A program made the translations under genes and the position numbers. The notes under the pieces are model-generated. The model made no database searches. It worked only from the letters and a program-made list of their open reading frames with translations, and was not told where the DNA came from. From a virus (taxonomy: Duplodnaviria; Caudoviricetes): 35,011 nt of DNA. Below, one piece after another: positions 4,877 to 30,635 of the stretch (position 1 is the stretch's first letter; every line of letters begins with the position of its first letter). The stretch covers positions 1-35,011 of the IMG/VR virus record IMGVR_UViG_3300005325_000105; one strand, 5' to 3'.

Positions 4877-5115
4877 TGATTCACCTCCGATTTTTCGCGT
4901 CCATTCGCGTAATTAGCGGATAAATCCTTCTGAATCTTCTCCCATTCCTCTTTCAAATATTCATCCACCGGTTTTTCCTCGCCTTCCAACGAACAGGCCC
5001 AGGGCGTCGCGATTCCGCACGCGCATTCGATCCGGAAATATTTCTTGAATATCCCTTCGGGCGTCTTTTTTTCATGTCGTCTGGACTCTCTACCGCATTT
5101 ACATTGCATCGTCAT
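4873..5115 (-). CDS. small zinc-finger protein (Lar-like)
   Basis: CKCG...IECACG...W pattern, 80 aa, coupled to neighbours. Confidence 0.5.
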   Translation of the reverse strand: MTMQCKCGRESRRHEKKTPEGIFKKYFRIECACGIATPWACSLEGEEKPVDEYLKEEWEKIQKDLSANYANGREKSEVNQ

Positions 5116-5543
5116 TATTTTGTCTCCCGATAAAATCTGTGTCCCCCGACCACCGCCACCAGCTTCATGTTTTTAACCCAGACCGGCGGAATGCTCCTCA
5201 GGCCCGGCGCGTAATAATGTGTCGCCGTAGTGGTGGGTTGATATCTGGCCTGGCAAACCTTCTGAGCGATCTCCTTGCAGTCACGCCATGCGGGTAAAAC
5301 GTTCGCATAAGAGAGAGCGCGGTTGATCAACGCGCGTTGTTTTTCCGGAGTGTTCCAGCAGGAGAATTGATTCGCCTTCAGACATTCATATTTCAATGAA
5401 TGCCCGCTCGCCCTGGCGCGATTGACTATTATTTCAGCCACCATGATCTTGCTGGCATAGGGCTCGCCTTCGGCTTCGCCCAGGATCGTCATCGCCACAA
5501 CCGCCGCTTCGGAAAATTTCAAGAGTTCTGTTATCAAGATCAT
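5115..5543 (-). CDS. SleB/CwlJ-family cell wall hydrolase (Hydrolase_2)
   Basis: TILGEAEGE (catalytic Glu), VAEIIVNR, NQFSCWN, ATHYY, VGGHRFY motifs. Confidence 0.9.
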   Translation of the reverse strand: MILITELLKFSEAAVVAMTILGEAEGEPYASKIMVAEIIVNRARASGHSLKYECLKANQFSCWNTPEKQRALINRALSYANVLPAWRDCKEIAQKVCQARYQPTTTATHYYAPGLRSIPPVWVKNMKLVAVVGGHRFYRETK

Positions 5544-5752
5544 ATTTTTCTACTCTCCACAAACTCCCTCACGCTTTCCGTGAGAATCCGTATTGCCGGC
5601 TTTCGGCACATCACTGATTTGATATCCAGCGCCTGGCGCAAACTGCCTTCTTCCACAAGGTGATAAACGTGAACTTTCGAGCAGGAAAATATCTGCGCAA
5701 CTTCGTCCGGCCGGAGAGTGGGCTTATTCGGCAGAGATAAAGTTACCATCAC
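5540..5752 (-). CDS. excisionase-like HTH_17 DNA-binding protein
   Basis: LRPDEVAQIFSCSKVHVYHLVEEGSL...RI...SVREF, 70 aa. Confidence 0.8.
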   Translation of the reverse strand: MMVTLSLPNKPTLRPDEVAQIFSCSKVHVYHLVEEGSLRQALDIKSVMCRKPAIRILTESVREFVESRKI

Positions 5753-5970
5753 ACTGTCCTCCGAATGTCGCGCTGATACTTCCTGTATCTACAAAGCAAT
5801 CTCGGAGAAAGCCTCTCTCCGGTCAGCACAAACCATAAATGTGACCGCGAAACTCCGAGCGCCCGCGTTGCCCCCACTATTCCGGGGAACCTGATTTTTC
5901 TCCGTTTCTGTTTGTTCATTTTTCCCACCCTCCGTTTTTCCTTGTGCCTTGTCTGATGTTTCGGTAACAT
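5749..5970 (-). CDS. Ner/Cro-like small HTH regulator (start may be the downstream ATG)
   Basis: ATRALGVSRSHLWFVLTGERLSPRL HTH; first gene divergent from the repressor. Confidence 0.7.
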   Translation of the reverse strand: MLPKHQTRHKEKRRVGKMNKQKRRKIRFPGIVGATRALGVSRSHLWFVLTGERLSPRLLCRYRKYQRDIRRTV

Positions 5971-6023: not shown

Positions 6024-6075
6024 TGTAAAATAGTTTTACAAAATATGCAAGAGAAAAGTGTAAAAAAATTTGACA
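6024..6075. promoter_or_regulatory. two 17-bp operator-like inverted repeats
   Basis: TGTAAAA-tag-TTTTACA (6024-6040, perfect) and TGTAAAA-aaa-TTTGACA (6059-6075, one mismatch) between the divergent regulators. Confidence 0.65.
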
Positions 6076-6716
6076 TAGCCGGGATAGCTTTGGACTTCCA
6101 GAAGCGGGTCCTTAAATTGAAGCAAAAGCTCAATTTATCGGACGAGGAGCTCGGAAAGAGATTATGGTTATCCAGGCAGTCACTCTATCTGCTTAAAAAG
6201 GGACATCATGATCCGACATACGGCACTATTTGTCGGCTTGAGGAAGCCGAGCGTGAGGCCGGAATCATCCAGAACAAAGAAAAAATCACCGGCCTTGTTA
6301 CCCCGGTTAAAATCACCCGCCGGACCGTGGGAATATACGGCATTGCCCATTGCCGAACCCATAAACCGGAATTTTACGATACCAAGCAACCCGATCACCT
6401 TGTTCCCCAGATCGAAGTACCTCCGAGCTTGTCTCGTGTCAAACGCTTGGCCGCTTTCCGAGCCAGCGATAGCTCCATGACTCCTTTAATCAACGAAAAC
6501 GACATTATTTTTTTCAGTCCGGATTATGAACTTGATAATGGCAGAGTTTGCGTCCTGAAATATGACGATACGATCGTCTGCAAGCGGTTTTATAAAAAAG
6601 ATAATGTCGTCTCGCTTCAATCCGACGCATCCGGCGTCGCCCCAATAGTCCTCAAACCCAGCCAAATCGATTGGGCCTATCGCGCACTGGAGGTTATAAG
6701 CGTGAGGAAACTGTAG
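6045..6716 (+). CDS. CI/LexA-type repressor (XRE HTH plus S24 peptidase-like domain); start uncertain
   Basis: N-terminal HTH LSDEELGKRLWLSRQSLYLLKKG; C-terminal DSSMTPLINEND and VCKR (Ser/Lys dyad), LQSD. Confidence 0.88.
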   Translation: MQEKSVKKFDIAGIALDFQKRVLKLKQKLNLSDEELGKRLWLSRQSLYLLKKGHHDPTYGTICRLEEAEREAGIIQNKEKITGLVTPVKITRRTVGIYGIAHCRTHKPEFYDTKQPDHLVPQIEVPPSLSRVKRLAAFRASDSSMTPLINENDIIFFSPDYELDNGRVCVLKYDDTIVCKRFYKKDNVVSLQSDASGVAPIVLKPSQIDWAYRALEVISVRKL

Positions 6717-6757: not shown

Positions 6758-7393
6758 ATGGCAGATTTTAGGTTTGTCTGCATGTATTGCAAAGGTCATC
6801 TTCTGTGCGATGAAAAAATGTCTGGTCAAAACATTCTATGCCCTCATTGTTCTAAAAACATAATGATTCCTGAACCGCATATTCCAGACAAAATGGATTC
6901 AATTGCCGCATTCACAAAAGAACAACAGAGTGATAATTTTTCCTATTGGAAATCAGGAATGTCAGATATGGCAAAATGGCAGTTTCCTTGTTTTGAATTG
7001 ATTATGATGTATTGCGGTAGAGTTGAGCCTGACTGGATAAAGCGTTGGAAAAAATGCGGTGGTAAATTGTATAACGGAAGAATGATAGCGCTTAAAGATG
7101 ATCCGGTATGGATAAAATTAGGTGACTCTTCAATTTTTACCGATGCATTTGATAACCCATATCCACCTTTTTCTGCTGATTCTGGCATGGGATTCCGGGA
7201 AGTCAATCGTGAGGAATGCATTGCACTTGGAATTATTGCGGAGGACTACGAGCCTGTATATAATGATCCATATTATCAGTTAAGACTAAAAGCTGAAGCC
7301 GATAATATTAAGAAAAAATTCGGTTCAGAATTCCTATCCGCTACCTGTAAAGAATTGGATGCTAAAATCCCAAAACCTGCAATCGAGAGTTGA
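6758..7393 (+). CDS. zinc ribbon fused to a MuF-like domain
   Basis: ATG 6758 after GGAG; CMYC...CPHC; C-terminal part aligns by eye with 29170..29970 (GRMIA, PYPPF..SGM, IALGIIA). Confidence 0.8.
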   Translation: MADFRFVCMYCKGHLLCDEKMSGQNILCPHCSKNIMIPEPHIPDKMDSIAAFTKEQQSDNFSYWKSGMSDMAKWQFPCFELIMMYCGRVEPDWIKRWKKCGGKLYNGRMIALKDDPVWIKLGDSSIFTDAFDNPYPPFSADSGMGFREVNREECIALGIIAEDYEPVYNDPYYQLRLKAEADNIKKKFGSEFLSATCKELDAKIPKPAIES

Positions 7394-7417
7394 CTTTAAT
7401 TCCTCATCTTCTATAAT
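7390..7417 (+). promoter_or_regulatory. sigma70-like promoter, probably giving a leaderless transcript
   Basis: TTGACT-16 nt-TATAAT ending 6 nt before ATG 7424; no Shine-Dalgarno. Confidence 0.7.
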
Positions 7418-7423
7418 AAAAAC

Positions 7424-7969
7424 ATGAAAATAATTATGCCATTCTTGGCTGCTCTTTCCCTTCTGATCTCTTTCTGTTATGCCGATCCCAGCGCGACCGA
7501 TCTGCAAAATGCCTCCATCGGCACAACCATGACCGTGGATTGTCTAAACAAAAAACAGGCAAGCTATGGTGGAGTTAATGCTCGCAAAGACTATTACCCT
7601 AAATTAGATATTACCGTTACGGTTAAGAATAATCAGGCAAAACAGGCGTCTTTTAATCTGGATGTCTTTTTCCTCGATCAGTGTAAATTCAGAAAAGAGG
7701 GAAAAGCGATTGATAGTCTACGTGCGCGCGATAAAAAATCTTCTCAATTCCCTTTACTTGCCGGAGCTTCGACCAATCTAGCATTTTGTGCATCTGCTAT
7801 GGATGATAAAACCGAATTAGAAGTCGGTTGGACCGGCTACATCGTCCGCCTTTCAGCTTATGACAAGCCCATCAAGATCGTTGCCTCCAGCCCGGCCCTT
7901 GAAAAACTTGCCAACGATCAGGAAAAAATGAAGCTTCTCGAATCCGGTCGCATCGTCCCTTCAAAATAG
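7424..7969 (+). CDS. secreted/periplasmic accessory (moron) protein
   Basis: Signal peptide MKIIMPFLAALSLLISFCYA; beta-rich mature part; AT-rich; own promoter. Confidence 0.75.
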   Translation: MKIIMPFLAALSLLISFCYADPSATDLQNASIGTTMTVDCLNKKQASYGGVNARKDYYPKLDITVTVKNNQAKQASFNLDVFFLDQCKFRKEGKAIDSLRARDKKSSQFPLLAGASTNLAFCASAMDDKTELEVGWTGYIVRLSAYDKPIKIVASSPALEKLANDQEKMKLLESGRIVPSK

Positions 7970-13947: not shown

Positions 13948-14199
13948 ATGAACTTTTTCATCAAACTGGCCCTGAAGAAATTCTTTCGCAAATTTCTTTT
14001 TTCCGTCGGCGCCGCGCTCGTGGCCCTGCCTTTTTTCGTCAAGGGAATCCAGGATGGTTACATTGACCTCGATCAACTTAAACAGTGGGCTGACCTTACC
14101 GTCAACCTGCTGGTCGGCCTGGTCCTCATGGCCATCACCTATGCAGGCCCCCTAATCACCGAATGGTTGAAGAATAAAAAAATCACAACGACAAAATGA
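13948..14199 (+). CDS. holin-like two-TM protein (83 aa)
   Basis: AAGGAGG RBS before ATG 13948; two hydrophobic helices, basic N- and C-termini. Confidence 0.55.
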   Translation: MNFFIKLALKKFFRKFLFSVGAALVALPFFVKGIQDGYIDLDQLKQWADLTVNLLVGLVLMAITYAGPLITEWLKNKKITTTK

Positions 14200-15158
14200 A
14201 TATTTTCGGATTCACAACTCCTGTTCTTATAGGTAGGGCGACGGCATCCCTGCCGTGCCGTTCCTTTCCGGCTTTGTGCCTCTGTGCCTTCTGCCTTTGT
14301 GCCTTTCTGCGCGCCAGGGCTGACTCCATTTCCGTCTACGAGGAAAACGACTTCCTTGTCTCCGATGGAAAAGGCTCGAACGAAGACGGCTGGTATACCC
14401 AGGGCATGCAAATCCAATACGTGAACACAAACGATTGGGGACTGACACTCGGCCAGCAAATCTACACTCCGGAAAACAAAAACAGTCCTTTGCCGTCGCC
14501 CGGCGACCGGCCCTATGCCGGCTATCTGCACGCCGCATATTTTCAAAACATCCTCAAAGGCCAGCAGGACGATTATTTTAAAATTGACGCCGGCATCATC
14601 GGCCCTGCCGCATTGGGAAATGAGGCGCAAAACGGCTTGCATAAACTCTGTGGCATGGCCCTTGCAAAGGGCTGGAAATATCAGTTGCGGAATGAACCGA
14701 CGTTGAACGCTGCCTATTATAAATCTTTTTCTCATCGCTTCTGTCCGTGGTTTGAATACAAGCCTTTCGCGGGAGTAAATTTTGGTAACGTCCTCGTTGA
14801 CGCCGAACTTGGAAACTTTGTTCGGATGGGCTTACTTTCAAAATCATTCAATCCCACGATTTACTCCTTCAGTTCCGAAAACCGCAGGATGAAGGATTCA
14901 GATTTTTACTTTTACCTTTTCGCTGGTGTGGTCGGCCAAGCGATCGCTTACGACCACCTGCTTGATGGCAGTCTGTTCCAGGACGAACAGGTTACGGTCA
15001 AGCACAAACCTTTTGTCGCCAACGGCTCGGTAGGCGCCTGCGTCGGCATCTATGCGTTCGAGCTGACTTTCACGCATTGTGAAGTGACCGAGCAATGGCT
15101 CAGCCAGCCCGATCGCGATAACAAATTCGATTCGATCAAACTGACATATAAATTCTGA
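14196..15158 (+). CDS. lpxR: lipid A 3'-O-deacylase, LpxR family (DUF2219) outer-membrane beta-barrel
   Basis: Signal peptide; YEEND, D.WYTQG, GQQIYTP, DRPYAGYL, IGP...AQNGLH, GWKYQLRNE, LDGSLF; C-terminal Phe. Confidence 0.88.
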   Translation: MNIFGFTTPVLIGRATASLPCRSFPALCLCAFCLCAFLRARADSISVYEENDFLVSDGKGSNEDGWYTQGMQIQYVNTNDWGLTLGQQIYTPENKNSPLPSPGDRPYAGYLHAAYFQNILKGQQDDYFKIDAGIIGPAALGNEAQNGLHKLCGMALAKGWKYQLRNEPTLNAAYYKSFSHRFCPWFEYKPFAGVNFGNVLVDAELGNFVRMGLLSKSFNPTIYSFSSENRRMKDSDFYFYLFAGVVGQAIAYDHLLDGSLFQDEQVTVKHKPFVANGSVGACVGIYAFELTFTHCEVTEQWLSQPDRDNKFDSIKLTYKF

Positions 15159-17931: not shown

Positions 17932-18471
17932 CAAAAAAGAAAGGAAATTCATCATGTTCGTAAAACTGAAAATTATCTGCTTCATTTTTGCCTTCTGCAT
18001 TCTGCCTTCTGCCTTGGTTCAGGCCTCCGACGCCATCGGAATCCCGAGTTCGCTGAATGATCGCCTGGCCGCCGCCGAACTGGCGATCGCTGTCAGCACG
18101 AATGATCTCGCCATCCAGGCATCCACCAACGCGCTCAATACGCGCCTTGGAACGGCCGAGACTACTCTGGCCACCGCCACGGGCAACGTTGCCACGCTCC
18201 AGGGACTGATGACGACAACCACCGGCAATGTCGCTGCCGTACAGTCCGCGACCAACGCGCTGAATAGCCGGATCATCGCCCAGGCCGATACTAATGTAGG
18301 GCTTGTCCCAAAAGCGCGAAATCTGGGAAATACGATCTTAAATTTTATGGCGGATAGCAAGGAAATTGTATCAGCGGTAAGAGCTCTGTGTTATGACGGC
18401 AGCGCGGATAAAATCAGCCTATTTTGAATAGTTCCCGGCTGATGAAGGAAAAAACCTGGGGAGTTTTAACA

Positions 18472-19959
18472 TCAAGCGGCTTTTTCTTTAGCCTGTTTTT
18501 TCGTCAGGCGGGCTATAACCCAAAGGTTGTGCGCCAGCACTGCCCAAGCCACTCTTAATGAACGGCCGGCGAACCCCTTGGCTGGCAGCGGATCGCCGAT
18601 GAAATTAATTTTGATAATGCCAATACGGCCTTCGGTCTGGGCCCGGCGGGTCTGCTCTTTCACAAAACGCGGTTTTCTTCTCTGGCGTTGTAGTTGCAGC
18701 GGGTCTCTGGCGGCAACGGCATTAAACCATTTTATATCCGTCAGTCGGCCTTGATTATCTGCGCTGTCATATCCGCGGTCGCCGGCCAGGGAGATTGCGG
18801 AAGCGTCGCGCGGAAGCAGGCCGCCAAAGTTTTTTTGCAGCCGGCGCGTGCAGCCGGGCAATAATCCGGCATCAGCCGGAGCTTGTTTTTTGAAAAGCTC
18901 ATAATCCACGATCAGCCCTTGCGCCTGTTCACAGATCATCAGCGTGTTGCCGAATTCCACTTCAGCGCGCGCCTTACCACGCACCAGCACGTGAATATCC
19001 GGCTCATACAAACTCAGGATTTTTTCCGCGTTCGCCACGGGCCGCGCGCCGATGATTCTTTCATGCGCCTGGCGCATGGCTTCCGGCAACTGCTCAAGGA
19101 CGTTTCGCATGCGTTTCAAAACCTGTTCCGTCTGCCGCCGGGTCCAGTCCGTTTCAGACCAGCGCGTGTCTAAAAGATCATAATAACGTTCCCCATGTTT
19201 GCGGATAACTTTTGTCAGCTTCTTCAGCTTGCGCAAAATCATTTTTCTCGCCTTGGCGCTATCCGGCCGGCGCCGGCACTGGGTCATCTCTATGCATAAG
19301 GAGTTGATCCGCCGCATCAGCAGCTCCGGCGCCATAATCCGGTGTTTAAGCCCATGCTTCCGAATCAGAATAATGGCCGACAGCAATGTCCCCGCGCCAT
19401 CCCGCAATAGCGTCCAGTCCACCGGAAAATGAATATTGGCCGGCACACAGGTGCTGTCGAGAAAGAACCGATCCAAATCAATCGCGCTTTCCAAGCCCAC
19501 CTTCTGCGCCGCGTCTCCGGCGGCAACATAACGAAGCAAGAGCGTATTCAATTCCTTGAGTTCTTGCGGCGTGATCATGCGTTCATATCTTTGCAGGGTG
19601 CTTTTCGCCGGAACCTTCACAACTTCCAGCTCGTCAATCCGACAAAACCACTGCAACAAATCGCTCTCCGCCATACAAACTGCCATCCCGCGCAGATCGT
19701 CGCCAAGCAGCATTCTGGCCAGCGTGCAACGCAACGCCCGCACGGCGTGTTTCTGTACCGTCTGCCTGCGGCGACCGCTCAAACTTCCCGCCGCCTCGGC
19801 CAGTTCAAGCTTTTTCTCCACAAACCTTTTCTCTATCCCAGTAACTGTCAACGCCTTGTTGATCCGCTCCAAAATACGCCGCCTTTCACGATAATCGAGG
19901 TTACCGACAATTACCCGTAATACCGGACTTAAGTGTTGCTGATACGCCATCTCTTGCAT
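18472..19959 (-). CDS. IS5-like DDE transposase
   Basis: FLDSTCVPANIHFPVD, KILSLYEP...RGK...EFG, GDRGY, R...EGRIG..K motifs. Confidence 0.9.
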   Translation of the reverse strand: MQEMAYQQHLSPVLRVIVGNLDYRERRRILERINKALTVTGIEKRFVEKKLELAEAAGSLSGRRRQTVQKHAVRALRCTLARMLLGDDLRGMAVCMAESDLLQWFCRIDELEVVKVPAKSTLQRYERMITPQELKELNTLLLRYVAAGDAAQKVGLESAIDLDRFFLDSTCVPANIHFPVDWTLLRDGAGTLLSAIILIRKHGLKHRIMAPELLMRRINSLCIEMTQCRRRPDSAKARKMILRKLKKLTKVIRKHGERYYDLLDTRWSETDWTRRQTEQVLKRMRNVLEQLPEAMRQAHERIIGARPVANAEKILSLYEPDIHVLVRGKARAEVEFGNTLMICEQAQGLIVDYELFKKQAPADAGLLPGCTRRLQKNFGGLLPRDASAISLAGDRGYDSADNQGRLTDIKWFNAVAARDPLQLQRQRRKPRFVKEQTRRAQTEGRIGIIKINFIGDPLPAKGFAGRSLRVAWAVLAHNLWVIARLTKKQAKEKAA

Positions 19960-20052
19960 ATATTTCCTTTCGCGCTCTTTTGTTTCCGGACGTCCCCGCT
20001 TGAGACATGCCTAATAACATGCCATAGCGGCAAAACTTATCAATCGTTTTTT

Positions 20053-20370
20053 ATGAAAAATATCAAACCGATCGTCAGACGTTTGAAAGAACTCCAGCGC
20101 GAACTGGCGTGTTTGGGACCCATGATGCGCGGATCAGTGGTCAGGCTCGGCCCTTACAAACATATTTGGTTCTCGCTTAATAAGGACAAGAAAACGCGGC
20201 TTGTTTATCTCGGCGCCGCACGCGAGCAAGCGGCCAAACTGTGTTCCGACAACTACAAAAAATTACAGGCGATTGTCGAGGAAATGACGTCGCTGAACAT
20301 GGATTTACTGAAGCAGCATCTCGAACCGGAGAAGTGTCTCGAAGATCACGGAAAAAACTCGGCGGGATGA
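20053..20370 (+). CDS. IS accessory protein, DUF6788-like
   Basis: 105 aa; MMRGSV...TRLVYL...NYKKLQAIVEEM pattern; lies inside the IS, divergent from the transposase. Confidence 0.65.
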   Translation: MKNIKPIVRRLKELQRELACLGPMMRGSVVRLGPYKHIWFSLNKDKKTRLVYLGAAREQAAKLCSDNYKKLQAIVEEMTSLNMDLLKQHLEPEKCLEDHGKNSAG

Positions 20371-23200: not shown

Positions 23201-23886
23201 GCAATCCTGTTCTAGATTATAAACGCGTCCGCATCCGTTTCGATGCCGATAAATTCCAACTGGAACGGGATATTCTGGCATCGGCAACTCCCGCCATGTA
23301 TCGCGGCAATGATGCAAGTTTCGAGGTCGTCATATATTGGAAAGATCAGATAATTAACGCCACAAACATCGCAACATTGACCTTTTCCATCTGGACAATT
23401 GATTGTAAAAGTCGGAAAGCCACAAAGACCATCACCGCTGCCGAAATCACTGCAATTCCTTCAGAAGCTGACTGGAGTGGTGGCACTGCCCAGCATGCCG
23501 TCTTCCCCTTTACCGGGCAGGAGATGAACTGGGCTTTAACTTCCCCAAAAACGGAAGAAACTTTTATGCTGGTTCTTGCCGGCGTCACAAATCACACGCC
23601 GGGCCGTAATATCACTTATGGACGTTCAAGCCTGAAAATAATTGAAGATGCCGAAGGGAATGCCGCCGAATATGTGGTCAACGATCCGCTCTATTACACC
23701 CAGATCGATGCCGACGGCCGCTTCGTCCAGCTTCAGGGCGATGGCTATACATTTCGTGCCAAAAAAGGTACGGACGGAAATGTGTATCAGCAATTTTATT
23801 TTCAGGAGGAAGGCAAATGGCGAAGCAGAATACCCAGAATCGTTGGTGGCCAACCAAACATCACCTGGGGCGAACCGGAGGACTGA
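23197..23886 (+). CDS. hypothetical baseplate/fibre-anchor protein (BppU-like N-terminus)
   Basis: ATGA-coupled start 23197; YRGND..F.V, FTGQEMN, YYTQIDADGRF motifs seen in fibre-attachment proteins. Confidence 0.5.
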   Translation: MSNPVLDYKRVRIRFDADKFQLERDILASATPAMYRGNDASFEVVIYWKDQIINATNIATLTFSIWTIDCKSRKATKTITAAEITAIPSEADWSGGTAQHAVFPFTGQEMNWALTSPKTEETFMLVLAGVTNHTPGRNITYGRSSLKIIEDAEGNAAEYVVNDPLYYTQIDADGRFVQLQGDGYTFRAKKGTDGNVYQQFYFQEEGKWRSRIPRIVGGQPNITWGEPED

Positions 23887-23888
23887 CT

Positions 23889-26800
23889 ATGAAGAATTTT
23901 CGATTTTGGATTTCCGATTTTCGATTAATAGGTAGGGCGGCGGCATCCCTGCCGCGCCGTCTGTTTTTCATTCTGTCTTTGTGCCTCTGTGCCTTTGTGC
24001 CTTCTGCCTTCGCCACGCTATCCATTGAAAATGGTAGCGTGTCCAACCTCACCCGCATCTCCGCCATCGTCTACGGCGAACTCATTTCAACCAACGGATC
24101 CGGCACAAACCCGGTCTGCACGCTTTACTATGGCACTTCCGATGGTCTTACCAATTCGTCCAACTGGTCCTATTCCGTCTCTCTTACCAATGTGGGAATC
24201 GGCGTTTTTTTCAACAACCTCACCGGCCTTGCACCGGCGCAGAAATACTATTTCAACAGGTCTGCAACCGAGGGCACAAACACCACCTGGTCTTCTTCCT
24301 CCTCTAATTTTTGGACCCTCGCCGGCGCTCCGACCAATGCCTATCCGGTATCCACCAATGGCATTGCCCTGATCGTCTCCACCAACGGCGATCTCATGGC
24401 TCCGCTCAACTTCTTTTCCGCCAACATGGATAAAATAACCAACGCCGGTTTGGTCTCTTCCTTTGAAATCTCAAATTTGAACTCTCAAATTTCCGAGACT
24501 CTTACCAACGCCGTTGACGGCGGCCGCGAAGGCGAGGGCTCCGTCACGGTCATCAATCGCCAAATCATCATCAAGCATCCCAGCCCGCTTGCCATCACCG
24601 GCGCTGTATCAAGGGTTTTGTCTGGTCCCGGCATAGGCATCACACCGGAAGGCGGCCAGGGCGATGTATCCTTCTTTATCTCCAATTCAATCCTTGAAAA
24701 AGTTTCCGCCGCTTTGACCAACGAGCCGGAATTTTCCGCCTCCCCGGCCGGAGGAATTACCGGAGCGGATGTAACCAATTTTAGGACCGCTTTTCTTTGG
24801 GGCAATCATGCGCTTTTTGGCTACCTCACCGGCACGACCGGCACGAATTATTTTTCGCCCTTGGGGCATAACCACGACGGCTCCTATGCCTCCATCGGCC
24901 ATCTTCACAGCGGCACCTATTCGCCGACCAATCATTTCCATAGCTGGACAAATCAATTCACACCAACAAACTCTTCAATCTTCGTGCGCAGTCCGACTAA
25001 TACGGCCTCCACGAATAAAGTCCTTTACTCCCTTGGCAACGGCGTGAACGTCTGGCTCGATCCGTTCGCGCTCGGCAGCGTGACCAACTGGGTCAACATG
25101 CCCACCAACACGGCCACTAATGTTTACACGTTCCAAAAAATCAACGTCGGCTCCAACATCGTCGAATCTCCGGAGTTGATAAACATCAAGGGAACCGATC
25201 GCGCAAAGATCAGGTACTCCACGGTCGGCGGCAGCGTCACATCTTCCGTTTCCATGACTCCGCCAGGCGCGATAACTTTGTACACGAACACGCTAACACC
25301 CGCGTTGATGGGGTGGAATCAGGCCGGACCTCAATATGCATACACAAATCTTTATATGTCCGACAATCCCGCCTGGTGCTGGTGGGCAGGCATAACGCAG
25401 GCGGTTGCATACAGCAGCATCTTACGTCTCGATTTCTGGGGCTTCGACATTTCTTTGGACAACACGGTTATCACGGGCATAAAGGTTGAAATGGAAGGCT
25501 ATTCGGAGAGCACAAATTATCTGTCTGCGCGGATATTTAACAACGGATATACCTCTTCCGTCGTTACGGTGGAGTGTCCCGGTGATGATGCTTATATCGG
25601 CAATCCGTCATCACACACAAATTGGACAACTTACGCCCTTGGCGATTCAAATACGATCTGGAACCTGAATGCATTATCGGCCGAGGAAATCAACGCAAAC
25701 GACTTCGCTATCGATTTCTGGGTTCGCCGCGCCGGCGGCTATTACTCCGATTTTGCGTGCAAGAACGTAAAAGTCATCGTGTACTACCAGTCAGAAATCA
25801 TTTCTATGACGGCAGGCGCGACGTCAAGTAACACGTGGGACATTACCGACGAGCGCAATGGAACCCTTGCCTCATTTTCCGCGTCCGGGATTGCTTTGGA
25901 AAAACCCGTCACTGTCCCCAGCCTCATCCTCGGCGGCGAAACCCGGACCAACTGGCCTGACTCCGACTATGCCTCTGGAATCTCAAATCTGAACTCTCAA
26001 GTTTTGGTTGTCTCCTCCCGCGTGGATCTCGCCGAAGGTAGTATTGTCACCAATGTCTCTGAAATCTCAAATCTGGCATCTCAAGTTTCCGGTCATGTCG
26101 CTGCCACCAATCCGCACGGCATCACGCCAGGCATGATCGGTGCCGTGTCGACGAACGATGTCAGCGTGACCAACGCCCGGCCGCCCACTACGCATGGTCA
26201 CTCCTATACCGAGGTCACAAATGCCCCTTGGCTCACGAATGAGACATATCTGGGCACGATCACGGGCGCGACAATCGTGACCGGAGCAGCCCCGGCAATC
26301 GTGACCAACGGCGGAATTTTGGGGATTACTGTGCTGGCCGGCGGGGGCGGCGGATCGATTACATATGGCACAACCGCCGCAACTGCTTATCGCGGGGATT
26401 GGGGCACGACCGTAAGCAATGCTGTCAACGGCAAAGCAAGCCAGTCCGATTATGCAGCCACAAGCAATCAGGTTGATTTGCATGCTTCACAGATTGCGGC
26501 TCTTTCCGCCTCAAACAACACGTGGTCTGCAGATGTTAATGGTAATGCGTTTTCTCTCACGAATACGGCCGCGATTAAAATTAAAGCAAATCGCAATCCG
26601 GTAAAAGCGGCGGCGCTGCCTCAGCCGCGCTCGCGTTTATCCGCTGCCAATCATGTGGGGTACGCTTATATCTTCGGCGGACTAGACGGGACGGCAAAAA
26701 CGAATAATTGGCGTTTTGACGGTTCGACCATCACCGAAGTAAAGGGATTGCCGGCTCCACGTTATGATATGGCGGCGGCGTATGTTCCAAACGCTTTGTT

Positions 26801-27872
26801 TGCGGTTGGCGGCAATGACGGAGATGGGCCAAAAACAAACGTATATATGTGGAACGGCAGCGCATGGCTGGAGTACCCCGGACTTCCGGTGGCAAAAGAT
26901 AAGATCGCCATGGTCGCCGGCGACGATGGCAAAGGGTATCTTGTGGGTGGTGGTGCTACCAATGCGTATCAGTATACGGCTGGTGGGAATTTTGTGAATA
27001 TTGCCGGATTACCAGACTCGATAGGTTCCAGTCGGAGGCCGGTTATTTTCAATTTGCACGGAAAAGTTACCGTCTTGCATGAGTTGTCCATGTATACTTT
27101 GCAAGGGACGACGAATTGGACGAAAGAGTATTTGATGCCGGGATATTTGTACATGTCCGATGGCGCCGCCTCGGTTGTTGGCGACTATGCTTACGTATCT
27201 CTGGGCGGCGACAGTTCCGAACTGTACCGTTTTGACGGGACAAACTTTACGCAAGTTGCATCGTTGCCGGAAACGGTCAACCTCCTTGCCGCTTCTCCCC
27301 TTGGCAATTCCGCTTATATGATTGGCGGGAATGCGTCGGATAATTCAAAAATTTTCAAAATCAATTTCAGCGATCCCCGACTTCTCCAGGAATGGCAAGA
27401 CACGAACGGATCCACGATTGCTGAATTGTACGACAACGGCAACATGACTGTTGCCGGGCCGTTGACGAACAATGCTGGGTATTACGGCAACGGCCCGGGG
27501 CTGACGAATCTGCCAAACGCCCAGGTAATAAAATATACCGGCAATACGACCACCACGGCCGGGAAGATTTATCAGTGGGTCACCAACGCTTGGGTTGCGG
27601 CAATCTGCACGAATGAGGTGCAATGTAACCGCATGGTCGCTGCGGCGATTGGCACAAACTCCACATCAGACGGTATGATGCTGATGGGTGAAATGACGGT
27701 TACCAATGATACCCTTTCTCCCGGCGCCGGAATTTTCGTATCGGCAACAGCCGGCGAATGGACGCAAACCGCGCCGACAAACTCAGGTTATATTTTGCGC
27801 CTGATCGGCTACGCGACCGAGATAAACAAGATTTTCATCAAGCCCGACGGCGTTTGGGGGACCGTACAATGA
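23889..27872 (+). CDS. large mosaic tail-fibre/adhesin-like protein with signal peptide, FN3-like domain, fibre motifs and Kelch repeats
   Basis: GGAGG RBS before ATG 23889; LCLCAFVPSAFA signal; LTGLAPAQKYYF; WGNH, HxH, NPH, TAYRGD fibre motifs; YIFGG/FAVGG/YLVGG/YMIGG Kelch blades. Confidence 0.75.
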   Translation: MKNFRFWISDFRLIGRAAASLPRRLFFILSLCLCAFVPSAFATLSIENGSVSNLTRISAIVYGELISTNGSGTNPVCTLYYGTSDGLTNSSNWSYSVSLTNVGIGVFFNNLTGLAPAQKYYFNRSATEGTNTTWSSSSSNFWTLAGAPTNAYPVSTNGIALIVSTNGDLMAPLNFFSANMDKITNAGLVSSFEISNLNSQISETLTNAVDGGREGEGSVTVINRQIIIKHPSPLAITGAVSRVLSGPGIGITPEGGQGDVSFFISNSILEKVSAALTNEPEFSASPAGGITGADVTNFRTAFLWGNHALFGYLTGTTGTNYFSPLGHNHDGSYASIGHLHSGTYSPTNHFHSWTNQFTPTNSSIFVRSPTNTASTNKVLYSLGNGVNVWLDPFALGSVTNWVNMPTNTATNVYTFQKINVGSNIVESPELINIKGTDRAKIRYSTVGGSVTSSVSMTPPGAITLYTNTLTPALMGWNQAGPQYAYTNLYMSDNPAWCWWAGITQAVAYSSILRLDFWGFDISLDNTVITGIKVEMEGYSESTNYLSARIFNNGYTSSVVTVECPGDDAYIGNPSSHTNWTTYALGDSNTIWNLNALSAEEINANDFAIDFWVRRAGGYYSDFACKNVKVIVYYQSEIISMTAGATSSNTWDITDERNGTLASFSASGIALEKPVTVPSLILGGETRTNWPDSDYASGISNLNSQVLVVSSRVDLAEGSIVTNVSEISNLASQVSGHVAATNPHGITPGMIGAVSTNDVSVTNARPPTTHGHSYTEVTNAPWLTNETYLGTITGATIVTGAAPAIVTNGGILGITVLAGGGGGSITYGTTAATAYRGDWGTTVSNAVNGKASQSDYAATSNQVDLHASQIAALSASNNTWSADVNGNAFSLTNTAAIKIKANRNPVKAAALPQPRSRLSAANHVGYAYIFGGLDGTAKTNNWRFDGSTITEVKGLPAPRYDMAAAYVPNALFAVGGNDGDGPKTNVYMWNGSAWLEYPGLPVAKDKIAMVAGDDGKGYLVGGGATNAYQYTAGGNFVNIAGLPDSIGSSRRPVIFNLHGKVTVLHELSMYTLQGTTNWTKEYLMPGYLYMSDGAASVVGDYAYVSLGGDSSELYRFDGTNFTQVASLPETVNLLAASPLGNSAYMIGGNASDNSKIFKINFSDPRLLQEWQDTNGSTIAELYDNGNMTVAGPLTNNAGYYGNGPGLTNLPNAQVIKYTGNTTTTAGKIYQWVTNAWVAAICTNEVQCNRMVAAAIGTNSTSDGMMLMGEMTVTNDTLSPGAGIFVSATAGEWTQTAPTNSGYILRLIGYATEINKIFIKPDGVWGTVQ

Positions 27873-28819
27873 GATGTTTTTTGATCATAACTTTTATCGG
27901 ATTGCTTGGCCGGTGTTATGCCGGCGATACCAACGAATGGATCGAAGTTCGGGGATTACGTGTGAATTGCTGGTGCTCGCCCATGGCGGTACTGAGGGGA
28001 AAAATATATATCGCTGGCGGCCCCGATGGCGCGCGAACAAACCTTTTTGTTTTCGACGGCACAAACTGGTCACAAGGGCCGAAGCCCCCGGGGAACGTAC
28101 AATGGTGCGGCGGTGCGGTTCTTAACAATAAAATTTATATTTCTTCTCCGTGGGATAATCACACAAATTTTTGGTCGTTTGATGAGACAAACTGGGCTTG
28201 GGAACCGGCGGCGCCTAATGGCGGGCAGCAGGGCATCGGCCAGAATAATGCCGCTGTTTTTAACGGCGCATATTATCAGGTCGGCGGGCACGATGGAGTC
28301 ACAGACGAACGAACCAATGTTTATAAATTCAACGGCACGTCTTGGGCGGAAGTGATGGGTCTGCCTGTTAAGACGCGTATGTCTGCAGTTGCTGTTTTCC
28401 GGGACAGACTTTATTCGGTTGGTGGATATAACCAAAAGACGAATGTGTATGTTTACGACGGGACAAACTGGACTTGGGGTCCTGCTTTTCCAGGCGGCGA
28501 TAACGGTGGTTTGGCTACTAATAACGAGGATCGGCTAATTTTCATTCAAGGGAATGACTCGGTGGGAACGTGGACAAACGTCTATTCATTCGACGGGACA
28601 AACTGGACTACGGCGCGAGGGACAGCACATAGTCGCAGGGCCTTATGGTCAGCCGTGAATTTTAACGGAAAGGTATATGCGATCGGCGGATATTGCACAA
28701 ACGTAGAATATCGCTTGCCGGACGCTGCGTCCCCGATAACTGCTCTCTATCTCTACGGCGTCAAAATCAGCAAACTCTGCGGCGTCACTATCAATAAATT
28801 ATGCGGGAGGGGACAATGA
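27869..28819 (+). CDS. Kelch-repeat beta-propeller protein with signal peptide
   Basis: ATGA-coupled start; MRCFLIITFIGLLGRCYA; repeats KIYIAGG...FDGTNW; C-terminal KISKLCGV-TINKLCG repeat. Confidence 0.82.
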   Translation: MRCFLIITFIGLLGRCYAGDTNEWIEVRGLRVNCWCSPMAVLRGKIYIAGGPDGARTNLFVFDGTNWSQGPKPPGNVQWCGGAVLNNKIYISSPWDNHTNFWSFDETNWAWEPAAPNGGQQGIGQNNAAVFNGAYYQVGGHDGVTDERTNVYKFNGTSWAEVMGLPVKTRMSAVAVFRDRLYSVGGYNQKTNVYVYDGTNWTWGPAFPGGDNGGLATNNEDRLIFIQGNDSVGTWTNVYSFDGTNWTTARGTAHSRRALWSAVNFNGKVYAIGGYCTNVEYRLPDAASPITALYLYGVKISKLCGVTINKLCGRGQ

Positions 28820-29169: not shown

Positions 29170-29970
29170 ATGATCTCTTTTTCTTCACAAATTCCTTTTA
29201 AGGAGGCCCTTTCTTCCCTCCGTTCCAAGGGCCTCCTCCCGACTTCCCTTTCCTCCGCCGATATGCAAAAGCTCGACGCCGAGATCCGCAGCAGAAGTCT
29301 CTTCTCCGCCCGCACCACGAATGCAGGCTATTTGCAAGAGGTCAAAGACCAGGTCGACGATCTCCTGCAGGGAGAAACCAACGAAGCAACCATGCGCCTG
29401 AAACTCAAGGAATCCCTGCGCGCAATTTCATATGATCCAGTCCAATCCGGCGTCGAACCAGGCACTTTGAAAGACCTTTCTTCTGATCCCCGTCTTAACC
29501 TAATAATCCAGATGCAATCTGATACCGCTTTGGGCTACGGGAAATTTATTCGCGACCAGGATCCCGCCGCGCTCCTGGCCGCCCCCGCCCAGGAACTCTT
29601 CCGCGCCGAGGCCCGAAAAGAACCCCGCAACTGGCCCCAACGCTGGATGGATGCCGGTGGCCAGTTCTATGACGGCCGTATGATTGCTCCAAAGAATGCA
29701 GAAATATGGACGGAAATCTCCGCTTTCGGCCAACCATATCCGCCCTTCGATTATGGTTCCGGCATGTGGGTCCGCGATATCCTCCGCACCGAAGCCATCG
29801 CCCTCGGCATAATCGCGCCTGACGAAATGGTCGAACCTTCAAACATTCAAACCTTTAACACGGGTTTTCAACCTTCCATTGCCGGCCTCGATCCTGATCT
29901 GCAACAAGCCGTCCTGGCCTCCATGGGCGACATGGTCGAATTCATCGGAGGAGTTTTACATCTAAAATGA
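29170..29970 (+). CDS. MuF-like (gp30) head morphogenesis protein
   Basis: PFKEAL..L..K, RSLFSA, RLNLII, W...PYPPF..GSGM; followed by gpG-like gene as in Mu. Confidence 0.75.
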   Translation: MISFSSQIPFKEALSSLRSKGLLPTSLSSADMQKLDAEIRSRSLFSARTTNAGYLQEVKDQVDDLLQGETNEATMRLKLKESLRAISYDPVQSGVEPGTLKDLSSDPRLNLIIQMQSDTALGYGKFIRDQDPAALLAAPAQELFRAEARKEPRNWPQRWMDAGGQFYDGRMIAPKNAEIWTEISAFGQPYPPFDYGSGMWVRDILRTEAIALGIIAPDEMVEPSNIQTFNTGFQPSIAGLDPDLQQAVLASMGDMVEFIGGVLHLK

Positions 29971-30635
29971 GCGTTGCCATTAACATCAACATCCGCGATC
30001 GCGCCACCCCGGTAATCAACCAGCTTGACTCAAAACTCATTGATGACGCCGGCAAGCACACCGTCGGCACTTCCGTCATGCGCCAGATACTCGATCACCT
30101 CACCACTCTGGATTCGGAGCGTCCAAACGCGCTGGGCGGCCGCCGCACTCATTTCTATGCCCAGGCCGGCAAATCCACGCACTACGAAATCACCGATACC
30201 GGCGCGGTTGTCTCAATCGATCACATCGGCATCGCCCAGCGCTATTTCGGCGGAAAAATCGAGCGCGAGGATGGCGGTCCTTTGACCATCCCCGCTCGGG
30301 CCGAAGCCCATGGTCGCCGCGCCCGCGAGTTCAATAACCTTGTCATGCTCTGGGGCCGCAACGGCCCTTACGCCCTGGCCGAACGCGAGTCTATGGATCT
30401 CCGCCTCCGTCGCAGTACAAAAAAAATAAAAGGCGGAGGTAAAGCAGTCTATAAATATTTTGCCCACGGCGAAGAACGTGGCGGCGGCATCTTCTATTGG
30501 CTCGTCAAATCCGTAACCCAGCAACCCGATCCGACCGTCTTGCCCGAAATGTCCGCAATGGAAGAAAACGCTTTTTCCGCCGTCACTAATTACATCAACA
30601 ACATTCTCAAACTCGAATCCCGTATTAATTCATGA
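29967..30635 (+). CDS. Mu gpG-like virion morphogenesis/tail completion protein
   Basis: Follows MuF; AQRYFGGKI...LTIP, WLVKSVT motifs. Confidence 0.7.
   Translation: MSVAININIRDRATPVINQLDSKLIDDAGKHTVGTSVMRQILDHLTTLDSERPNALGGRRTHFYAQAGKSTHYEITDTGAVVSIDHIGIAQRYFGGKIEREDGGPLTIPARAEAHGRRAREFNNLVMLWGRNGPYALAERESMDLRLRRSTKKIKGGGKAVYKYFAHGEERGGGIFYWLVKSVTQQPDPTVLPEMSAMEENAFSAVTNYINNILKLESRINS

Follow-up and report, generated by a model that had tools for sequence, protein, structure and literature searches.

A truncated MuF core with a zinc-ribbon cap behind the repressor of a Mu-like phage, a possible decoy made in the lysogen

Proteins of the MuF superfamily, including Mu gpF, SPP1 gp7 and the MuF polymorphic toxins, share a homologous core. 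According to main-text passages of PMC5576092 and PMC5512222, MuF is a head protein of low copy number that associates with the portal and carries cargo at its C-terminus, and passages of PMC5576092 report MuF genes in about a third of tailed phages, where they lie in packaging modules and nearly always occur once per phage (614 genes in 611 genomes). The role of the MuF domain is poorly known. In contrast to this arrangement, the gene described here, from a stretch of virus DNA of 35,011 nucleotides (the window), is a second, N-terminally truncated MuF gene located beside the repressor, with an extra cap at its N-terminus. The feature is real and recurrent, and it is a reuse of a virion part for which no description was found: the titles, abstract openings and main-text passages covered, a scope that leaves out most subscription papers, contained no truncated, repressor-linked MuF.

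Other described systems resemble the locus in part. Tab (PMC10884400) and Tai (PMC11364771) are small accessory genes of prophages whose products interfere with a rival's virion component; they target tail assembly and have anti-defence partners, and the passages available from the two papers do not describe descent from a virion protein. The likeness of the window fusion to Tab and Tai lies in the accessory prophage setting. Tab comes from a Mu-like phage related to D3112/MP22. Zinc ribbon and GYF switch modules of the GltJ type are the same kinds of N-terminal module and are common in this bacterial group according to passages of PMC11135422; there they normally precede membrane receptor modules, whereas in the fusion a soluble phage head-protein core follows. 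The T4 Imm family (PF14373), repressor-linked superinfection morons, occupies the same genomic slot in one phage (L176), but Imm is a small membrane protein and the fusion protein has no membrane segment.

The source record of the window is a single virus contig, and its gene content is that of a Mu-like transposable phage, with genes for a MuB-like ATPase (matching AAA_22 and phrog_296), the large terminase, Portal_Mu, a Mu-type protease, the major head protein and a Gp36 adaptor, the CI-type repressor, and a gene in the transposase position. The features discussed below are collected in Table 1. The family search gave no significant match for the small divergent gene, whose position we take to be that of Cro/Ner. 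The similarity of 29967-30635 to Mu gpG was below significance, and this assignment was dropped. Most of the 25 genome loci with MuF-family relatives are labelled Verrucomicrobiota, and we infer a Kiritimatiellia-type host from the class sample in which the nearest prophages were found. The full-length MuF sits after Kelch-repeat genes, far from the portal, in contrast to phage Mu; the repeats occur in two tail-region proteins (window 23817-28819, +).

Table 1. Features of the window around the repressor and the full-length MuF gene
Feature	Position	Strand	Basis
Small divergent gene, presumed Cro/Ner position, start of early operon	5749..5970	-	Position and homologues in related phages
CI-type repressor (HTH_3 + Peptidase_S24)	6045..6716	+	Domain matches
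Fusion gene, zinc ribbon with MuF core (211 aa; GC 0.38)	6758..7393	+	ORF, BLASTP, profile matches
Zinc ribbon at the N-terminus (cysteines C8, C11, C28 and C31; predicted to form two beta-hairpins)	6758..6871	+	Sequence, AlphaFold model, ribbon alignment
MuF core	6896..7246	+	Conserved columns, structure model, BFVD comparison
C-terminal linker and helix, also MuF-derived	7247..7390	+	Matches tail of P0153/P0003
Near-consensus sigma-70 promoter-like site (11/12), over the stop codon of the fusion gene	7390..7417	+	Pattern match only
Accessory gene, hydrophobic signal-peptide-like N-terminus	7424..7969	+	Homologues in related loci; signal peptide judged by eye
Full-length MuF (Mu gpF homologue), presumed virion copy	29170..29970	+	Profile comparison
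Gene after full-length MuF in most related prophages	29967..30635	+	Related prophage contexts

The reading frame of the fusion opens with an ATG at 6758, with GGAG 7 nt upstream, and ends at 7393. As the earlier note had said, the gene is AT-rich and lies just after the repressor in the same orientation: the gap from the repressor stop is 41 nt, the GC is 0.38 and the GC3 0.32, compared with about 0.52 and mostly 0.5-0.7, respectively, in the other genes, and the low GC is uniform along the whole gene. The sole near-consensus promoter at the locus overlaps the fusion's own stop codon and is placed to drive the following gene. From the sequence, we infer that the fusion gene is co-transcribed with the repressor in the lysogen.

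The homology of the product to that of 29170-29970, on which the earlier note was built, is real. BLASTP gave 37 identities in 78 positions (47%, E 3e-20), and the Smith-Waterman score of 175 compares with a maximum of 56 in 1000 shuffles. The note's account of a ribbon that replaces the N-terminal half of MuF was correct in outline but not in detail, for the cysteines are spaced CxxC-x16-CxxC and not x17, and the ribbon does stand at that end but the homology begins at about residue 47, with part of a MuF helix retained. The ribbon has no Pfam match of its own; P0015 and L110 have ribbons with which it aligns. In sequence and model it resembles GltJ/PVC-type zinc ribbons, with a pair of CxxC knuckles borne on two N-terminal beta-hairpins, zinc binding being putative. 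The AlphaFold model (mean pLDDT 88; 90 for the core alone) shows a ribbon of two hairpins followed by a compact core, and ends in a helix. The protein keeps 23 of the 29 conserved MuF columns and 18 of the 66 variable ones, and about 48 residues beyond the core match the MuF tail.

A profile of the full-length relatives (80 sequences) aligned with Mu gpF over 188 columns in hhalign (96.3%, E 1.9e-9), and the part common to the fusion falls in the second half of this alignment. The fusion protein matches the full-length MuF family directly, while a fusion-only profile matched gpF weakly (2%, E 0.02). PF04233 matched neither the 6758-7393 product nor the 29170-29970 MuF, NCBIfam MuF models matched none of 23 proteins, and phrog_220 matched the 29170 product only weakly, in its N-half. 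Full-length relatives bear C-terminal PBECR1, PBECR3 or ART domains, as MuF toxins do; a homologue in an Akkermansia phage is annotated as head morphogenesis; and in the comparison of the core model with BFVD, four of the top seven rows were named phage head morphogenesis domains, all weak (E > 0.01). Because of the gpF profile alignment, these C-terminal domains, the annotation and the weak model matches, the family of the window's MuF and the fusion core, judged at the level of sequence, is a divergent MuF family, in which the gpF His and CRC motif are replaced throughout. Foldseek against the PDB returned nothing at E<=0.001, and no solved-structure relative was found by sequence profile. 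VIA-align gave Z 3.6 for the core alone (rmsd 4.5, 74 aligned); its ferredoxin-like matches (Cas2, PaaX and VapD; best Z for the whole protein 4.0) were weak and were set aside. Atlas feature matches were all below 0.9, and the word-index and viral searches found no close relative of the query or of P0015.

By its layout, the fusion is not the virion MuF, since the N-terminal profile is absent and the gene is placed after the repressor and not in the late structural operon; the full N-terminal region and the late-operon place belong to 29170-29970. Nor is it a MuF polymorphic toxin, with no C-terminal toxin domain and no Pfam or PADLOC match. It is a MuF-superfamily derivative of neither kind. 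The protein might instead be one more regular part of the virion that is packaged and injected in the way MuF is, the ribbon being its cargo, as the intact MuF core would allow; passages of PMC5512222 and PMC5576092 present MuF fusions as a known delivery device. However, the gene lies outside the late operon and has an atypical composition, the N-terminal 55-115 residues of Mu gpF and the full-length members are missing, the extra domain is N-terminal, and some relatives are chromosomal with no phage genes near them, all of which makes this explanation highly improbable.

The earlier note had also taken the gene for a copy of the phage's own MuF, and this part did not survive. In the trees, which were quick LG+G4 runs on about 155 columns with the query flagged for unusual composition, a grouping with the own MuF was rejected (AU p=0.001), and by score the own MuF comes 47th of 59. 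An origin by duplication of this phage's muF was likewise discarded, with no DNA match better than E 0.2. A 7-residue insertion and the tail of the window fusion are common to P0153, P0154 and P0003 and absent from the phage's own MuF. From its sequence relationships, 6758-7393 is a MuF paralogue from another subclade.

The combination recurs. Five phages carry a full MuF together with an N-terminally truncated MuF in the post-repressor slot, namely the window and four Verrucomicrobiota-type Mu-like phages (G328, L253, G890 and G966), in which the truncated MuF is capped by a zinc ribbon, GYF_2 or another N-terminus, or has a C-terminal helical tail. In G328, the repressor is followed by a ribbon-MuF gene, overlapping the repressor stop in an ATGA, and then by a homologue of the window's 7424 gene. 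In L253, a virus contig found by a search with P0061, a GYF_2-MuF gene begins 2 nt after the HTH repressor and precedes a signal-peptide-like gene. In G890 an HTH gene is followed, after about 30 nt, by a MuF core that ends in a helical tail (GC 0.49 versus 0.59), and in G966 an HTH+S24 repressor and a lipoprotein-like gene precede the truncated MuF. All five reading frames are intact, and two of the five genes have neither ribbon nor GYF_2. Thus the earlier claim of a virion domain repurposed outside the virion module and linked to the immunity region is supported by the slot in five phages, and an origin from the own copy is not supported for the window.

The fusion profile matched 55 of 401, 8 of 47, 58 of 401, 7 of 33 and 44 of 401 genomes in samples that overlap, the large ones being limited to seven scored candidates for each genome. 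In three genomes, a single contig bore two strong matches at a distance of 12-20 kb; these proved to be the Mu-like prophages G328, G890 and G966, with the full MuF in the structural region. The slot count does not include the G212 pair, separated by 52 kb, or the weak G140 pair. Among 38 virus records searched whole, no short second MuF copy was found, the second match in G456 being a 471-aa frame. Where the early-to-late interval was in view, 3 of 35 distinct Mu-like loci had a MuF core in it, all three from directed search, and 32 had none; G890 and G966 are outside this count. A phmmer search returned 1728 representatives at E<=0.001. Among the 150 matches listed of these, at least four have an N-terminal ribbon, at least five GYF_2 (three above the Pfam cut-off) and at least two a C-terminal ribbon; other short rows, possibly partial genes, were left out of these counts. 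MuF genes with a different N-terminus were also seen at L038:8112-8837, L166:9685-10464 and L260:1483-2202. The L166 copy occupies the usual structural position, so non-canonical forms are not confined to the slot.

The slot itself is variable. Homologues of the 7424 gene occupy it in L110, L181/L186, L231 and L232. In the close relative L181/L186 the repressor is followed directly by this homologue, without a fusion, and in the close relative L231 a zinc-ribbon-TM2 gene (L231:6507-6935) stands before it in the same slot. The slot gene of L176 is Imm_superinfect (L176:3472-3816), that of L146 encodes a Cys-rich membrane protein (L146:5213-5749), and lipoprotein genes fill the slot in other phages. 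Most of the 35 slot genes scanned had no family match and one was a named immunity family; PADLOC had no match for the fusions, and L232:3664-4212, SLATT-like by eye, matched neither Pfam nor PADLOC. The post-repressor slot of Mu-like phages is likely a hot spot for uncharacterised defence genes.

In a tree built from 86 cores, nine changes, at least five of them forced by strong branches, are needed to account for the 30 non-canonical rows. A single clade for the five slot cores was rejected (p=0.004), and therefore either the origin or the replacement of the core was repeated. A single origin of all ribbon fusions was rejected weakly (p=0.021 for eight rows, p=0.026 for the window with G328). 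Recent DNA patches from virion muF genes are present in two of the five slot genes. The G328 fusion has a GC-rich 207-nt patch that is 81% identical to the virion muF of the G178 prophage and 75% to its own muF; within it 59 of 76 aa are identical (dS ~0.7), and upstream of it 16 of 75, with dS near saturation, where virion pairs are 56-71% identical. In L253, 163 nt of the fusion tail are 88% identical to its own muF. The window's gene has no such recent patch. Selection to match current phages and neutral gene conversion between paralogues could each explain the patches.

In three of the five phages, then, the slot gene is similar to the phage's own MuF or has DNA in common with it; the own MuF is the top-scoring match of the core in G328 and G966. 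The slot protein could accordingly serve the phage itself, titrating its own MuF or a partner and so biasing establishment, lysogeny or progeny output, or blocking re-infection by siblings; the coupling of the slot gene to the repressor fits such a role, and a part of MuF in the lysogeny decision is proposed in a passage of PMC5576092. However, the core is far from the own MuF in the window and in G890 (rank 55 of 57 by score), and purified gp44 did not bind CI according to a passage of PMC7290940, and we regard this explanation as quite unlikely. The slot may also be recombination-prone and gather muF pieces behind common N-terminal modules, which persist with little function. The rarity of the genes (0/32), the long branches and some broken copies agree with this, and the window gene has no close homologue for measuring selection. 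Against it, all five frames are intact, conserved columns have been selectively kept despite AT-rich drift, and dN/dS is 0.13-0.35 in chromosomal orthologues; we give it a low probability.

MuF-derived genes also occur in stretches of chromosome without recognisable phage genes. They comprise four 226-aa genes (uvrA on one side and sulfite reductase on the other in two contexts read), three ribbon-MuF-TPR genes (two of which precede a GH57 gene), the L067/L068 pair and a GYF_2-MuF gene (L274). Rough dN/dS values for the first three sets are those given above, and with their conserved positions such genes (L131:7463-8143, L134:8072-8752, L136:7496-8728, L137:8138-9370 and L069:2133-3476) are apparently domesticated. 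Some copies look decayed: the ribbon-MuF-TPR gene L138:7722-9030 is split into two overlapping frames, L107 has lost a motif, and the truncated ORF L118:7465-7983 lies in an island with vWA, kinase, SLATT_5, DUF2779 and WYL genes. Such genes bring in a sensor or adaptor, in which the MuF core would recognise some component of a phage, with the zinc ribbon, GYF_2 or TPR signalling to a host protein or a separate defence effector. According to passages of PMC11135422, zinc ribbon and GYF domains serve as interaction modules at the N-terminus, are over-represented in Planctomycetes-Verrucomicrobia and are usually linked to receptor modules; both are found fused to the MuF core, the chromosomal ribbon-MuF-TPR genes are under purifying selection, and one truncated copy sits in the L118 island. 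On the other hand, no effector domain was found in the fusion or in the window's operon, housekeeping genes (UvrA, sulfite reductase, GH57) make up most of the neighbours in the chromosomes, and two of the five slot genes lack both modules. A sensor appears unlikely.

The reading that we favour over these four is that the truncated core with its zinc-ribbon cap is a decoy which the lysogen produces along with the repressor and which hampers rival phages. From the sequence-based evidence we put its probability at roughly 0.45, a little short of an even chance. The fusion would be transcribed with the repressor while the phage is dormant, and the loss of the MuF N-terminal helices, together with a cytosolic interaction module (zinc ribbon or GYF_2), would keep it off normal virion duty. 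The core would compete with or trap the MuF of an incoming or replicating rival, or alternatively MuF's partner (the portal or the genome end), so that establishment fails or the progeny are poorly infectious. The recurrence in five phages, the non-monophyletic cores, the muF patches and the retained conserved columns argue for the decoy, as do the Imm_superinfect and zinc-ribbon-TM2 genes in the same slot. Published passages add that MuF-type proteins bind the portal (SPP1 gp7, as cited in PMC5576092), that gp44, a minor capsid protein of 80alpha, protects the ends of injected DNA (PMC7290940), and that prophage proteins blocking rival virion assembly exist (Tab, PMC10884400; Tai, PMC11364771).

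Several points count against a decoy. The slot gene is rare, being absent from the 32 other distinct Mu-like loci whose interval was in view. The likeness to the own MuF in three of the five phages risks self-inhibition, and no antidote gene was identified. Most MuF cores are net acidic, which weakens the DNA-end route. The patches can be neutral, some chromosomal copies are decayed, and the slot genes of relatives are mostly without a family match, with PADLOC blank for the fusions. It is somewhat doubtful, more so than the decoy itself, that phages and hosts have repeatedly turned the phage's own MuF head/pilot protein into a truncated immunity decoy or receptor, coexpressed with the repressor, its specificity renewed by recombination with virion muF genes from circulating phages, and in some cases domesticated in chromosomes. 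If protective, the gene would be a defence drawn from a conserved virion part, updated by recombination and aimed at the head/injection step and not the tail. A natural, soluble and repeatedly evolved truncation marks the core that is kept without the N-terminal region, and offers a direct route to its ligand.

Other accessory genes were seen in the window. A gene for an LpxR-family outer-membrane protein (14196-15158, +; E 5e-62) lies between the portal and protease genes and also occurs in a related phage contig (L189:4026); it is possibly a lipid A-modifying accessory gene. The early operon contains a gene for a Hydrolase_2 cell-wall hydrolase (5115-5543, -). A DDE transposase gene (18472-19959, -, with 19933-20370, +) is inserted in the head-tail region directly after 17954-18427, and was not seen at the equivalent place in the G328 prophage.
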